Shown here: one piece after another, positions 2,073-7,004 of the stretch | How the letters are laid out: each line of letters starts with the position of its first letter | Numbering within the stretch: the stretch's first letter is position 1 | NCBI GenBank assembly: GCA_963717145.1 | Contig: OY970325.1 | Location: 2,144,001 to 2,208,000, forward strand | DNA length: 64,000 nt | Direction: 5' to 3' | From: an uncultured Armatimonadetes bacterium | GTDB lineage: Bacteria > Armatimonadota > UBA5829 > DTJY01 | The notes under the pieces: model-generated | Seen by the model: only the letters and a program-made list of their open reading frames with translations | Databases searched by the model: none | What the model was told of the DNA's origin: nothing | Program-made: the position numbers and the translations under genes

Positions 2073-2154
2073 ATGGGGAATGGTTGATGGTTCATGGTTG
2101 ATGGGGAGGCCAGTCTCCTTCCCCATTAGCCATCAACCATCAACCATTCCCCAT
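2073..2154. repeat. Heptamer-repeat hairpin (ATGGTTG)n...(CAACCAT)n, copy 1
   Basis: Tandem 7-mers arranged as inverted arms between genes. Confidence 0.85.
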
Positions 2155-2172
2155 TCCGCAAGGAGGAAGCAC

Positions 2173-3243
2173 ATGCCAGTCAAGATCGCAATCATCGGCG
2201 CCGGCAAGTTCGGAGAGGTACATCTCAAGACGTTCAAGCAGCTCGAGATGCTGGGAGTCGCCGAGCTTAAGGGCTTCAGCACTGTCAAGCAGAACGAGAT
2301 CGACCTCTACGAGCCGATGTACGGCGTCAAGGGGTACCTCGACTACAAGGAGATGCTGGCAAAGGAAGATATCGACGGCGTCACGGTCGTCACCCCGGAC
2401 TTCCTCCACCGCGAGATAGCCGTCTACGCCGCGAACCAGGGCAAGCATATCCTCTGCGAGAAACCGCTCGATGTCACCGTCGAGGGCTGCACCGAGATGA
2501 TCGAGGCAGCGAAGAGGAACAACGTCTTGCTCGAGGTCGACTTCCACAAGCGTTACGACCCCGATCACTTGGCGGTCGAAGCCGGAGTCCGCGCCGGGAA
2601 GATCGGCGACCCGCTCTACGGCCAGTGCTACATGGAGGACCGCATCGAGGTCCCTGTCGACTGGTTCGCTCACTGGGCGCCGCACGGATCGCCTGTGTGG
2701 TTCCTCGGCAGCCACTTCGTCGACCTCATCCGCTGGATCATCAAGTCGGACGGCGAGTCGGTCTACGCCACCGGGAGCAAGAAGAAGCTGCTCGGCGAGT
2801 TCGGCATCGACATGTACGACTCGGCGAGCGCCAAGGTCGTCTTCAAGAACGGCGCTTCGTTTTCGTTCGACGTCTCGTGGATCATCCCCCGCAAGTTCGA
2901 AGCGATCGTCAACCAGGGCATGCGGATCGTCGGCACGGACGGCCTCTGGGAGGTGGACAGCCAGGACCGCGGCGACCGATCGTGCTCCCAGGACGACGGG
3001 ATGCGCACCTGGAACAACAACTTCATGCGCGAGGAAAAAGACAAGCACGGTCGAACCATATACAGGGGCTACGGCGTCGAGAGCATCGCGGATTTTGCCT
3101 ACAACGTCGAGTTCCTGAAGGATGGCGGGACGCTCGGTGATCTCGCCGGCAAGTATCCCTCAGGCGAGGATGGCCGCGAGGTGACCCGCATCTGCGCGGG
3201 GATTCACAAGAGCATGGAGACCGGCGAGATCATCAGGCTATGA
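2173..3243 (+). CDS. Gfo/Idh/MocA family NAD(P)-dependent oxidoreductase
   Basis: IAIIGAGKFG Rossmann motif, HILCEKP, GSHFVD; AGGAGG RBS before ATG 2173. Confidence 0.9.
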   Translation: MPVKIAIIGAGKFGEVHLKTFKQLEMLGVAELKGFSTVKQNEIDLYEPMYGVKGYLDYKEMLAKEDIDGVTVVTPDFLHREIAVYAANQGKHILCEKPLDVTVEGCTEMIEAAKRNNVLLEVDFHKRYDPDHLAVEAGVRAGKIGDPLYGQCYMEDRIEVPVDWFAHWAPHGSPVWFLGSHFVDLIRWIIKSDGESVYATGSKKKLLGEFGIDMYDSASAKVVFKNGASFSFDVSWIIPRKFEAIVNQGMRIVGTDGLWEVDSQDRGDRSCSQDDGMRTWNNNFMREEKDKHGRTIYRGYGVESIADFAYNVEFLKDGGTLGDLAGKYPSGEDGREVTRICAGIHKSMETGEIIRL

Positions 3244-3248
3244 TTCTG

Positions 3249-3477
3249 AACTGGTCGCATTTTGCGACCAGTTGGGTGTCAGGTTATAAGTATAAATCAT
3301 GCCACGGGTTGGCTGGAGTACATCTTGAGATCACAGAATGTGATCTCAAGTGCCCGGCAGTCAATGCGTTTGAGGTTGCATTCTGCAACCTCAAACCGAA
3401 TCCACTATGGCCAGTTTTGTCCTCCCGTGGAGTCTTTGAGGTCGCATTCTGCGACCTCAAAGACTCCACGGGAGGAC
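3249..3477. repeat. Array of four perfect palindromes, consensus TTGAGGTCGCA-NNN-TGCGACCTCAA (3249-3273, 3324-3350, 3368-3396, 3419-3477)
   Basis: Arms of 11, 12, 13 and 28 bp, each perfectly complementary around a 3-nt loop; fifth copy inside the downstream gene at 3699-3731. Confidence 0.9.
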
Positions 3478-3495
3478 TTCGAACGGAGGCATCTA

Positions 3496-4068
3496 GTGAC
3501 AGAAGCAGAGCAGTCTCTTGTACCTGTTGAGGCAATTGCCGGATTGATCCTTGTGCTCCGTGGACAGAAGGTCATTCTCGACGCGGACTTGGCGCATCTG
3601 TATGGCGTCACCACCAGACGCCTCAATGAGCAGGCAAAGCGCAACCGCGAACGGTTTCCTGACGATTTCGTGTTTCAGCTCAACGATGAGGAGACACAGA
3701 ACTTGATGTCGCATTTTGCGACATCAAGTTCCTCAAGACACGGAGGCCGTCGGAAGAACCCTTGGGCCTTCACAGAACACGGCGCACTGATGGCAGCCAT
3801 GATCTTGAACTCGCCAACCGCAGTCGAAGCAAGCGTCTACGTCGTTCGGGCGTTCATCCGGCTGAGGGAACTGCTCTATACACATGCCGAACTGTCACAC
3901 AAGCTCGCCGAACTGGAATCCCGAGTGGACCACCATGATGACGATATCGCCATGCTGTTGGAGGCGATCCACCAGCTCCTGACCCCGCCCGAGCCGCCCC
4001 CACAGCGGAAGATCGGATACCGTGTAAGAGAACCCGGACGCCGTTACGTAGTGAGCCGCAAGAACTAG
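3496..4068 (+). CDS. ORF6N domain DNA-binding protein
   Basis: LRGQKVILDADLAHLYGVTTRRLNEQAKRNRERFPDDFVFQL...GGRR...AFTEHGALMAAMILNS...VVRAFIRLR; GGAGG RBS before GTG 3496 (frame open from 3262). Confidence 0.9.
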   Translation: MTEAEQSLVPVEAIAGLILVLRGQKVILDADLAHLYGVTTRRLNEQAKRNRERFPDDFVFQLNDEETQNLMSHFATSSSSRHGGRRKNPWAFTEHGALMAAMILNSPTAVEASVYVVRAFIRLRELLYTHAELSHKLAELESRVDHHDDDIAMLLEAIHQLLTPPEPPPQRKIGYRVREPGRRYVVSRKN

Positions 4069-4080
4069 AGGAGAGAGATC

Positions 4081-5400
4081 ATGCCTGTACCAAGTATCAA
4101 GACCGAGCTTCCCGGGCCGAATGCCCAGAGATTCATCGAAATGTCGCGGCAGTACGAGCCGAATTCGATGTCCGACCAGGTGCCCGCCGTCTGGCAGCGC
4201 GCCGAGGGCGTCGTCGTCGAGGACGTCGACGGCAACACGTTCATCGACTTCACGTCCGGCGTGCTGGTGACCAACATCGGTCACTGCCATCCCAAGCAGG
4301 TGGCGGCGATCCGGGAGCAGGCCGGCGAGGTCATGAACTCCTACGATTTCGTGAATCCCTGGCGGGCTCAGCTCGCGAAGAAGCTCGTCGAGATCACCGC
4401 CGACAACCTCGATAAGGCGTTCATCCTCTCCACAGGCGGCGAGGCGGTTGAAGCAGCGATCAAGGTCGCCCGACGTTACACCGGCAAGTACGAGGTCATC
4501 GCGTTCCACGGCGCGTTCCACGGGCGCACGTACATGGCGATGAGCGTCGGCGGCAAGCAGGGCATCAAACGCGATTTCGGGCCGATGGTGCCCGGCGTAC
4601 TCCATGCGCCGAATGCCTACTGCTATCGGTGCATATTCGACCAGAAGTTTCCCGACTGCAACTACACCTGCCTGCGATACCTCGACCGCCTGATCGAGAC
4701 CGAAAGCACCGGTAACGTCGGCACGCTGATCACCGAGTCGTATCAGGGCGGCGCGGGCTCGATCATCCCGCCGGGCGAGTATATGCAGCGCCTGAAGAAG
4801 TGGTGCGAGGACCGGGACATCCTCTTCATCCTCGACGAGGTTCAGTCGTCGTTCGGCCGCACGGGCAAGATGTTCGCATACGAGCACTGGGGCATCAAGC
4901 CGAACCTGCTGACGCTCGGGAAGGGAATCGGCAGCGGAGTCCCGATCTCGGCGCTCGTCGGCGAATCGAAGATCTTCGACGTCCTGGAGCCGGGCAGCAT
5001 GTCGAGCACCAGCGGCGGCAATCCGCTCTGCTCCCGGGCGGCGCTCACCTCGATTCAGGTCATCGAGGAGGAGAAGCTGGTCGAGAAGTCGAGGAAGTCC
5101 GGCGAGTTGATGCTCGATCGCCTCAACGAAATGATGCGCAAATACGAGATGATCGGAGATGTCCGGAGCATGGGCCTCGTCGCCGGCGTCGAGATCGTGA
5201 AGGACAAGGCGAGCAAGACGCCCGATGCCGCCGCGACGAAGCGGATCACCGAGGAGGCGTTCCGGCGCGGGCTGATCATGATCGCGCCGATCGGGTTCTA
5301 CGGCAACGTCCTGCGCATCGCCCCACCGCTTGTGATCTCAGAGGAGCACCTCAACAAGGGCCTCGACATCATGGAAGATGTGATCAGAAACCTGTCATAA
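4081..5400 (+). CDS. Class III PLP-dependent aminotransferase (GabT-like)
   Basis: IDFTSG, AFHGRT, FILDEVQSSFGRTG, TLGKGIGSG. Confidence 0.9.
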   Translation: MPVPSIKTELPGPNAQRFIEMSRQYEPNSMSDQVPAVWQRAEGVVVEDVDGNTFIDFTSGVLVTNIGHCHPKQVAAIREQAGEVMNSYDFVNPWRAQLAKKLVEITADNLDKAFILSTGGEAVEAAIKVARRYTGKYEVIAFHGAFHGRTYMAMSVGGKQGIKRDFGPMVPGVLHAPNAYCYRCIFDQKFPDCNYTCLRYLDRLIETESTGNVGTLITESYQGGAGSIIPPGEYMQRLKKWCEDRDILFILDEVQSSFGRTGKMFAYEHWGIKPNLLTLGKGIGSGVPISALVGESKIFDVLEPGSMSSTSGGNPLCSRAALTSIQVIEEEKLVEKSRKSGELMLDRLNEMMRKYEMIGDVRSMGLVAGVEIVKDKASKTPDAAATKRITEEAFRRGLIMIAPIGFYGNVLRIAPPLVISEEHLNKGLDIMEDVIRNLS

Positions 5401-5881: not shown

Positions 5882-6925
5882 ATGCCTGTACCTGATCTGC
5901 ACGAACGACTCGAGACACTCGATGCATTGGTGGACCCGGCGCACGTGGCCGAGTCCGAGCGGCTGCTGGAGGATGCGCTCCTCTATCGCGAGGTTTCACG
6001 ACTCCCTATGATCGAAGCCAAAGGCGTGGAGGGATGGCCGACGTACCCCTACTCGGAGGCATTCCACGACATCGAGAAGATGCTCATCAACGAGTTGGCC
6101 AGCATCTACGTCGGCGCGAATCTGCGGGACGACCGAATGTACACCATCCGCGCGAACTACGGCGTCGGTGCGATGGCCTCGCTGTTCGGCTGCAAGACCT
6201 CGCTCACGATGAACAACATGCCCTGGTGCGAGGCGCTTTCCGAGCGGGAACTCCTCAGAGCGCTCGACCGGGGCGTCCCGGATGTGACGACCGCCGGTCT
6301 CGGTTCGCGGGTATTCCAGACCGAGCGTTTCTACCTGAGTACGCTGTCGGAGTACCCAAACCTGAGCAAGGCCGTCAAGATCTTCATGTGCGACACTCAG
6401 GGGCCCTTCGATACGGCGCATCTGGTCATGGGTCATCGAATCTACACGGAGATCTACGACAACCCCAACCTGGTGCATCGCCTGCTCGATCTCGTCACAG
6501 AGACCTCCAACCGGTTCACTCATGCGCAGAAGAAGCTCATCGGCGAGGGGAACGAGTGGAGCTTCCACTCCCAGACGAGGGTTCGCGGCGGCATCAGAAT
6601 CTGCGAGGACGCGCCGACGAACATCTCAGGCGACTCATACGTGGAGTTCTGCCGGCCATACAATGAGCGCGCGCTCGCGGAGTTCAGCGGCGGATGGATC
6701 CATTACTGCGGGAACGGCCGCCAGATCCTCCCGCACGTCCTGGATACACCGGGCGTGCTCGGCATCAACTTCGGCAACCCCGAGATGCAGGACCTGGATG
6801 CGCTCTACGAGGTGACCCGCGAGCGGGGAATCGGCATCATAAGCTGGAGCGGACCGTTCACACCGGAGCAGGGCGACCGCATGCGAACCGGCATCAGCCT
6901 GATCGGAAAGCGGGGGAATGGTTGA
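5882..6925 (+). CDS. Uroporphyrinogen decarboxylase-like (URO-D/methyltransferase superfamily) protein
   Basis: DTQGPFDTAHLV, YVEFCRPY, IHYCG motifs. Confidence 0.75.
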   Translation: MPVPDLHERLETLDALVDPAHVAESERLLEDALLYREVSRLPMIEAKGVEGWPTYPYSEAFHDIEKMLINELASIYVGANLRDDRMYTIRANYGVGAMASLFGCKTSLTMNNMPWCEALSERELLRALDRGVPDVTTAGLGSRVFQTERFYLSTLSEYPNLSKAVKIFMCDTQGPFDTAHLVMGHRIYTEIYDNPNLVHRLLDLVTETSNRFTHAQKKLIGEGNEWSFHSQTRVRGGIRICEDAPTNISGDSYVEFCRPYNERALAEFSGGWIHYCGNGRQILPHVLDTPGVLGINFGNPEMQDLDALYEVTRERGIGIISWSGPFTPEQGDRMRTGISLIGKRGNG

Positions 6926-7004
6926 TGGTTGATGGTTCATGGTTAATGCGGGACGGGAGCGGTCTCCCATTAACCATGAACCATCAGCCATCAACCATTC
7001 CCCC
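6912..7004. repeat. Heptamer-repeat hairpin, copy 2 (contains the stop codon of the upstream gene)
   Basis: GGGGGAATGGTTGATGGTTGATGGTTCATGGTTAATG...CATTAACCATGAACCATCAGCCATCAACCATTCCCCC. Confidence 0.85.

Follow-up and report, generated by a model that had tools for sequence, protein, structure and literature searches.

An ORF6N gene with a conserved palindrome in its own codons and an upstream array of the same motif: likely cognate sites of the ORF6N protein

Sites for DNA-binding proteins are sometimes found within coding sequence. Operators within or beyond the regulated gene cooperate with promoter operators in the lac system (O2 in lacZ) and the gal system (OI in galE), and in the cases of parS within parB/spo0J and of the lambda ori iterons within gene O, the site lies inside the gene of its own binding protein. 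The abortive-infection protein BstA combines a KilA-N-like DNA-binding domain with a cognate self-immunity element, aba, which works at the DNA level and overlaps the BstA gene itself (Owen et al. 2021, PMC8585504). The present analysis concerns a 64,000-nt stretch of an uncultured Armatimonadetes bacterium (assembly GCA_963717145.1, contig OY970325.1, positions 2,144,001 to 2,208,000 of the forward strand), referred to as the window, in which an ORF6N gene carries a perfect palindrome in its own codons (P5) and is preceded by four palindromes of the same motif (P1-P4). Comparison with homologous loci suggests that these palindromes are, on balance, the cognate binding sites of the ORF6N protein. 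No description of this architecture was found in the literature on ORF6N, palindromes and PDC-S05 that was searched (subscription journals and bioRxiv supplements lay outside the search), and an earlier sequence-only reading of the window had likewise known of none.

The ORF6N identity given to the gene in that reading is borne out by Pfam (ORF6N, PF10543; E 2.7e-31; 108.1 bits against a gathering cut-off of 27.8; profile positions 3-85 of 86). The protein, of 190 residues, also matches three PADLOC models of PDC-S05, a candidate single-gene defence system (E 7.5e-48, 2.4e-47 and 7.6e-37, from a library without curated cut-offs) and the PHROG 'anti-repressor' (E 5.3e-24). At E<=0.01, PADLOC returned only PDC-S05, with no BstA match, and Pfam only ORF6N; NCBIfam has no family for the protein. 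It is the single ORF6N gene of a genome of 5.37 Mb in one contig, with 60.6% GC.

An inverted-repeat search returned all five palindromes, the internal one included, at the positions first read by eye (Table 1); each is a perfect inverted repeat with a 3-nt spacer. The genome contains 277 perfect palindromes with arms of at least 10 nt and a 3-nt loop, and the only ones ending in T[CT][GA]CA are P1-P5. Chance is excluded as the source of P1-P5 because just these 5 of the 277 carry the motif and all of them lie at this locus. A relaxed scan of the genome (at least 10 of 11 pairs around CA-N3-TG) gave 11 sites, namely P1-P5 and six unrelated GC-rich hairpins. The possibility that the motif is a genome-wide repetitive extragenic palindrome (REP) family unlinked to ORF6N, which the earlier reading had listed among the outcomes that would count against it, is ruled out by the same count.

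Table 1. Palindromes and associated features of the ORF6N locus (window coordinates)
Feature	Position	Strand	Description	Basis
P1	3249..3273 (arms 3249-3259/3263-3273, 11 nt)	.	arms AACTGGTCGCA, loop TTT, G-type core TCGCA, outer arm shortened	
P2	3324..3350 (arms 3324-3335/3339-3350, 12 nt)	.	arms CTTGAGATCACA, loop GAA, A-type core TCACA	
P3	3368..3396 (arms 3368-3380/3384-3396, 13 nt)	.	arms GTTTGAGGTTGCA, loop TTC, core TTGCA	
P4	3419..3477 (arms 3419-3446/3450-3477, 28 nt)	.	motif TTTGAGGTCGCA-TTC-TGCGACCTCAAA at 3435-3461 plus 16 bp of symmetric flank	
P5, internal	3699..3731 (arms 3699-3713/3717-3731, 15 nt)	.	arms GAACTTGATGTCGCA, loop TTT, G-type core	
ORF6N / PDC-S05 gene	3496..4068	+	N-terminal helix-turn-helix-type domain (about residues 10-105), then long helix 107-162	Pfam, PADLOC, PHROG, AlphaFold2
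Predicted recognition helix codons	3613..3642	+	residues 40-49, TRRLNEQAKR; Arg42 at 3619-3621, Glu45 at 3628-3630	
GGAGG, likely ribosome-binding site	3485..3489	+	6 nt before GTG 3496	sequence reading
Lineage-specific unit, 836 nt	3245..4080	+	between oxidoreductase stop and aminotransferase start	site comparison, GC

The internal palindrome characterizes the family as a whole. Homologous loci were oriented and compared in 110 cases, 30 from a sample of the phylum and 80 from a species-level genome collection. A palindrome lies at the same codons in 108 of them, across many phyla, the exceptions being L006 and the frameshifted L011. Its core, TC[GA]CA-N3-TG[CT]GA, occupies the codons before the GGRR motif, and of the 80 perfect palindromes with arms of at least 9 nt that fall between +200 and +299, 78 have this core. 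Complementary pairs at the internal site average 12.23 of 13, compared with 5.59 after synonymous-codon shuffling that keeps each protein; the shuffle test gives p<=0.001 in 92 of the 108 loci and p>0.05 in none. Among 97 distinct sequences, 92.9% of the pairing cells are complementary, versus 73% in shuffles and 26-41% in slid controls. In the same set, cells changed on both sides number 235 against 71.5 expected, a figure reached by none of 500 shuffles, and double-sided changes are seen in 10 of the 13 pairs. The synonymous-shuffle null and the slid and shuffled controls rule out chance or a by-product of coding as the cause of the internal palindrome. More distant members share it: the palindrome is present in five of six further loci (on plasmids of Bacteroides, Sulfuricurvum and Segatella, in the record of a gut phage and on a viral contig), the one from Haliovirga being without it. 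A pattern scan of viral contigs found only one relative.

At this site the amino acids follow the DNA arms. Arg AGG occurs with Thr ACC and Ser TCA, Arg CGG with Thr ACC and Ala GCA, Leu CTA with Ile ATA and Ala GCA, and Met ATG with Thr ACA. The core GGTCGCA-A-TGCGACC is even read one base out of register at 12 of the 108 loci, yielding VVANCDH instead of RSQIAT. In the window, P5 encodes NLMSHFATSS before GGRR, which in the AlphaFold2 model closes one helix (residues 64-73) and opens a loop of low confidence (residues 75-85). Because the site lies in the codons of what is modeled as a structurally permissive loop, the protein sequence appears to yield to the symmetry of the DNA.

Some family members depart from the single internal copy. 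Two or three motif copies lie within the coding sequence at P0112, L071, L109, L123 and L125, as tandem LRSQ..TS duplications or as a copy in an N-terminal extension. L006 has lost the internal palindrome (peptide SMADAAPPKRGG) and keeps three upstream copies, at -230, -128 and -21. Eight loci (L011, L012, L014, L051, L052, L066, L075 and L080) are possible pseudogenes with in-frame stops or a frameshift in the aligned ORF6N region, and in all of them except L011 the palindrome is still recognizable.

The sequence of the site co-varies with that of the protein. In the AlphaFold2 model (predicted local distance difference test score 76.7), helices 29-36 and 40-49 form a helix-turn-helix, the second being the predicted recognition helix. 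Among 101 intact homologues, all 64 with Arg42 have G at site position ±4 (TCGCA), and all 37 with another residue have A, C or T there. Residues Glu45/Gln46 track the same split. In a tree built without the residue columns under test, each trait changes 16 times. An arginine-guanine contact is the textbook way for a recognition helix to read G. Read in this light, the Arg42-G correlation points to the palindrome as the protein's cognate site. Of the three roles that the sequence-only reading had offered for the palindromes, that of operators bound by the protein is accordingly the best supported, since residue 42 predicts base ±4 at 101 of 101 loci, though this support is indirect. Two tandem ORF6N pairs were seen, and in both the paralogues belong to different specificity classes. 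The paralogue at 17-622 of L037 has Ala42 with TCACA, and its neighbor Arg42 with TCGCA; the paralogue at 2201-2719 of L074 has Asn42 with TTCCA, and its neighbor Arg42 with TCGCA in the second reading frame.

Copies outside the gene are less regular. At least one with 10 or more of 11 pairs is present at 38 of the 110 loci, mostly 20-125 nt before the start, and the more distant flanks contain five motif matches in 236 kb. The idea of a self-referential unit made up of the gene and its palindromes therefore stands, on the strength of 108 internal copies, the extra copies beside 38 genes, and a motif that is no REP. The expectation that upstream arrays would be found at other ORF6N loci is borne out only in part: arrays of at least three copies are rare (the window's own locus, L002, and L003, L004, L006, L032, L047 and L077), and the array of the window is the largest upstream array apart from that of L032, which has six extragenic copies, four of them upstream. 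In the window, position 4 is G in P1, P3 and P4 and A in P2, and the center of P4 lies about 48 nt before the ORF6N start codon.

Orthologous arrays are present in two other genera of the same family, so that upstream palindromes number four in the genome of the window (G000), four in G085 and three in G373. At corresponding positions, the core switches among TCGCA, TCACA and TTGCA, each time in both arms. The orthologue of P1 in G085 has TCACA in both arms; those of P2 have TCGCA (G085) and TTGCA (G373), again changed in both arms; and those of P3 have TCGCA in both arms in G085 and G373. Neither genome has the 16-bp symmetric extension in its orthologue of P4, which suggests fold-back copying of the flank. 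The earlier observation that the palindromes differ in sequence and remain symmetric holds: every copy of the window is perfect, and the orthologues change in both arms. The class of the upstream copies is often unlike that of the protein beside them (for Arg42 proteins, G 16, A 11 and C 3).

A mechanism consistent with these results would be as follows. The ORF6N protein probably dimerises through its long helix 107-162, as judged from the model, and in such a dimer each recognition helix would read one half-site, with Arg42 reading the G at ±4. Binding of the protein to P1-P4, within the 250-nt leader and with P4 proximal, would repress its own expression, and the internal P5 could cooperate by looping or as a roadblock. 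Alternatively, P5 might mark the DNA that carries it as 'self', as aba does for BstA. In a chromosomal setting, autoregulation is more likely than such an aba-like role. The perfect symmetry of all copies is probably kept partly by fold-back (quasipalindrome) template switching, in addition to selection.

A number of observations weigh against recognition of these sites by the protein. P2 is A-type, which is not the type predicted for the ORF6N protein of the window, and the mismatch between upstream copies and Arg42 proteins noted above is mirrored by proteins without Arg42, whose upstream copies have A in 16 cases, G in 11, C in 3 and T in 1. Upstream operators would not be universal, since 72 of the 110 loci have no extra copy at 10 or more of 11 pairs. 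The residue-base rule is weakened by the linkage of residue and site within one gene; on supported branches, all five independent pairs change in the same direction, but with so few pairs the sign test gives p 0.0625, the most possible at this size. A distant homologue on a viral contig breaks the rule, having Arg42 with Gln45/Ala46 and a TCACA site. Fold matches of the N-domain to winged-helix DNA binders are weak, with Z values below the reliable level (6.5 for the baculovirus Orf22 N-domain, the highest; 5.9 for Dachshund; 5.4 for pSK1 Par bound to DNA; 5.0 for RacA). Foldseek returned nothing from the PDB at E<=0.001, and a sequence search of solved structures gave coiled-coil noise only. 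A promoter scan yielded a single promoter-like match, at 3215-3244, a weak consensus hit that is not relied on. The variable positions 7-8 are mostly complementary, though a dimer on duplex DNA would not need this, and so the dimer reading needs a supplement, either a hairpin or cruciform structure or a mutational drive. A structured form and template switching are not mutually exclusive as causes of the symmetry. Finally, one PDC-S05 representative is reported in a preprint to have reduced plating of T7 and T5 about 1000-fold, but it is said there to carry a RhuM domain and may not be an ORF6N protein (10.1101/2024.09.26.614923), which makes the link of ORF6N to PDC-S05 defence a loose one.

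The BstA/aba phage-defence system is among the closest known parallels. Both have a phage-type N-terminal DNA-binding domain and a short cis element overlapping their own gene, which on the BstA side acts as DNA and not as RNA or peptide; each BstA variant has its own cognate element, and the ORF6N site likewise co-varies with the recognition helix. BstA is borne by prophages and its domain is KilA-N-like, whereas the ORF6N gene sits in a chromosomal metabolic operon and is syntenic in three genera; aba spans 63 bp at the gene start and has terminal direct repeats, whereas the ORF6N site occupies codons 68-78, is a perfect palindrome, and is repeated upstream. The element suppresses its cognate protein in the account of BstA, and self-immunity could be proposed for ORF6N only by analogy.

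The lac O2 and gal OI operators resemble the ORF6N locus in that a dimeric regulator has symmetric sites at the promoter and a few hundred base pairs inside coding sequence (the spacing in the ORF6N locus is 267-454 nt). They differ in that they lie in a target gene rather than in the codons of the regulator's DNA-binding domain, are imperfect, and lack both cross-phylum conservation and arm co-variation. In parS/parB and lambda O, the gene of the binding protein itself contains the site, as proposed here, but these sites serve the partition or replication of a replicon, of which there is no sign at the ORF6N locus; the weak structural matches to the DNA-binding domains of the partition proteins pSK1 Par and RacA do not establish kinship. 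REP and REPIN sequences are also short, perfect, hairpin-forming repeats that are sometimes in frame within genes. Unlike the ORF6N motif, which is confined to one locus and travels with ORF6N genes in unrelated phyla, they are dispersed, RAYT-dependent and present in many copies. Perfect inverted repeats with both arms translated have been described in Nematomorpha mitochondrial genes (PMC6649704), but those are long (up to 284 bp), mitochondrial, and not tied to the specificity of a DNA-binding protein encoded by the same gene. Quasipalindrome template switching perfects imperfect inverted repeats (PMC7202029). It would make both arms change in concert and would lengthen them, as in the 28-bp arms of P4; being a mutational mechanism, it cannot alone account for a site conserved at a single codon position across phyla, or for the link of that site to residue 42.

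The unit that contains the gene and the palindromes is foreign in character. Its GC content is 54.5%, compared with 60-62% in the flanking genes; a homologue is present in 40 of 401 genomes of the phylum sample; and in the species-level genome collection the best matches, 45-64% identical, belong to Desulfobacterales, Planctomycetes, Verrucomicrobia, Burkholderiales, Acidobacteria, Bacteroidota and other groups. The patchy distribution and the nearest relatives in other phyla argue for horizontal spread, and the sequence evidence as a whole points to horizontal acquisition. The site was compared in 11 genomes of the same family. G000, G085 and G373 carry the unit at one and the same place, and these three filled sites are orthologous, consistent with one old insertion followed by vertical descent. 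The search for empty sites in relatives was successful: in G020 the stop and start of the neighbors overlap as ATGA, and in G260 and G206 a 26-nt spacer separates them. In G363 (L113, G363:C2 about 120232-120262) nothing is left of the unit but the final 16 nt of the ORF6N frame and the ribosome-binding site behind it, and because this end of the gene remains, the site is a deletion remnant rather than an empty target. The deletion in G363 was internal and possibly occurred between short TGA repeats. The window thus contributes filled, empty and deletion-remnant states of a single site.

This history bears on the proposal that a small mobile element moves or captures the 0.8-kb unit, with the palindromes as its ends or as substrates for recombination. 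The foreign composition, the patchy occurrence and the relatives in other phyla would fit such an element, as would the palindrome with which the unit begins 5 nt after the neighbor's stop, the copy just after the gene's stop in a few loci (L005, L011, L032), and the placement of related genes between co-directional housekeeping genes, such as atpA-atpG in six loci. Nevertheless, the genome has one gene and no further motif copy, no transposase or integrase is found among the neighbors here (and no HUH/Y1 transposase, as expected of hairpin-ended, IS200/IS605-like transposons), no target duplication is seen at the junctions, 72 of the 110 loci hold the internal copy only, the loss in G363 was not a clean excision, and the filled sites fit vertical descent; the proposal is very improbable, and the mobilising hairpins of the earlier reading are set aside with it. 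That reading's silent donor cassettes, upstream palindromes that would exchange the variable segment of the gene, fare worse still and can hardly be credited. Three upstream copies of the window are in frame and would encode motif-like peptides, and P2 of G085 shares its 11-nt arm and its loop with the internal copy of G000. However, upstream copies are in frame with the internal copy in 16 of 49 cases across the family, which is the chance rate, and the two orthologous arrays have 0 of 3 and 1 of 3 in frame; at most loci an upstream copy is lacking; the N-terminal extension that would join the copies to the gene is not conserved; and the segment encoded is a low-confidence loop. Four sets of metagenome contigs contributed, at this locus, short low-depth pieces of relatives, none of them over 3264-3395; among the sequencing runs listed, none of RNA contains the locus, and the best DNA run shares 0.27 of its words. 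The palindromes might instead work as RNA hairpins in the operon transcript, controlling how the ORF6N mRNA or the downstream aminotransferase message is processed or translated, or how stable it is. As RNA, the leader (3240-3520) does fold into four strong hairpins (-152 kcal/mol, z -12.6 against shuffles), and the unit is co-oriented with the operon that encloses it, with 5 nt separating it from the preceding stop and 12 nt from the next start, but any DNA palindrome gives such a fold. Arm mismatches at 80 unique internal sites comprise 8 G.T, 23 A.C and 19 of transversion type, and at 62 unique non-coding sites 17 G.T, 13 A.C and 17 of transversion type; pairs that would be G.U in the sense RNA are not favored over A.C, and the missing G.T excess points to DNA rather than sense RNA. 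There are no terminator-like sites (a hairpin with a T run) in 3000-4300, Rfam gives no family (microRNA-hairpin models only, far below the gathering score), and the Arg42-G correlation is left unexplained, all of which makes a role in RNA improbable.

A working form in structured DNA deserves more weight, although it too is unlikely. Here the palindromes would function either folded into hairpins on a single strand or extruded as cruciforms, for example at a replication fork or on phage or plasmid DNA entering the cell; the stem-loop would be read by the ORF6N protein or a host factor, and pairing itself would be selected. Symmetry extends to positions at which the copies of a single locus, or orthologous copies, vary, and non-coding copies, free of any coding constraint, are symmetric as well (of 62 unique extragenic sites, 26 match perfectly in all 11 pairs). 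Most aligned rows have an A/T-rich center, CA-WWW-TG, and such centers favor extrusion. Mismatches of the G.T and A.C kinds occur at similar rates, which would be expected were both strands to matter, and a hairpin stem would still present G at position 4, so that the Arg42 rule is compatible with this form. Against it, arms of 11-15 bp are generally short for stable cruciforms in vivo, and fold-back template switching gives the same symmetry without selection for pairing; the 16-bp extension of P4 looks like such an event. A broader scheme, to which only a small chance can be given, would take ORF6N/PDC-S05 proteins as phylum-spanning specificity classes in which residues 42, 45 and 46 pair with bases ±4/5 of a hairpin-forming site of 25-27 bp. 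The site in the gene's own coding sequence would be a self-marker or titrator like aba in BstA, upstream arrays that combine cognate sites with those of another class, such as the array of the window, would sense or neutralise proteins with an ORF6N domain of another class (for example, phage anti-repressors), and the protein would read a hairpin or cruciform on replicating DNA.

If the palindromes are indeed cognate sites of the ORF6N protein, a widespread family of small 'hypothetical DNA-binding' genes carries its binding site in its own codons, and its specificity classes can be read from sequence through the pairing of Arg42 with G. A poorly understood defence candidate would become open to direct assay. 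The family would also offer a natural case in which selection for a symmetric DNA site takes precedence over protein sequence within a conserved domain, and even over the reading frame. To this the window adds an orthologous series from three genera with concerted arm changes in non-coding copies.

For annotation, the start of the gene matters. The frame 3262-4068 is free of stops and reads LRSQNVISS, LRLHSATSN, LRSHSATSK and NLMSHFATSS, as the earlier reading had it, but the real start is most likely GTG 3496 rather than 3262, because most of the best 120 homologues in a protein search are 174-198 residues long and GGAGG lies just upstream of this codon. Both an N-terminal extension from 3262 and the 234-aa database gene call from 3364 are ruled out by these lengths and by the upstream open frame, which is not conserved (the stop-free stretch upstream of ORF6N genes has a median of 14 codons across the family). 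Long starts at 3262 or 3364 should be avoided, and leaders of this kind may be mistaken for REPs or small RNAs. In the protein search, 7958 of the 8000 candidates scored are relatives at E<=0.001. The protein belongs to the stand-alone ORF6N family, whose members have about 175-200 residues: full-length homologues reach 81% identity and cover 89-100% of the 190 residues, and an alignment of 17 sequences has 49 invariant columns spread over the full length, including the C-terminal helix and a PPE..IGF tail.

The unit lies, as originally read, inside an unrelated metabolic cluster and begins with a palindrome 5 nt after a stop codon. Upstream, on the same strand, is a GFO/IDH/MocA oxidoreductase gene (2080-3243, stop 3241-3243); downstream, 12 nt beyond the ORF6N stop and also on this strand, is a class-III aminotransferase gene (4081-5400). 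Elsewhere in the family, as judged from 150 of 215 extracted flanking open reading frames, the neighborhoods are mostly housekeeping operons, with parts of type I restriction-modification systems in a few loci. In six Verrucomicrobiota loci (L036, L046, L055, L058, L060, L071), the ORF6N gene lies between the ATP synthase alpha and gamma genes (atpA-atpG) and is co-oriented with them; in L035 and L073, the ATP synthase neighbor is on one side only. In eight genomes of one genus of the same phylum as the window (L016, L020, L023, L025, L026, L028, L030, L031), the ORF6N gene adjoins a DsbA-like gene, which is probably another vertically inherited insertion.

Other palindromic repeats occur in the genome and in the window. 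Arms of exactly 11 nt are found in 167 of the 277 genomic palindromes with a 3-nt loop, which suggests at least one dispersed repeat family. A second hairpin repeat, unrelated to the ORF6N motif, is present at two intergenic spots of the same gene cluster, 2073-2154 and 6912-7004. These quasi-palindromes of about 85-93 nt have arms of 35 and 43 nt that are 91-93% complementary and contain GGTTGATGG-like units. The two are 78-93% alike and create spurious open reading frames reading '...HQPSTIP...'.

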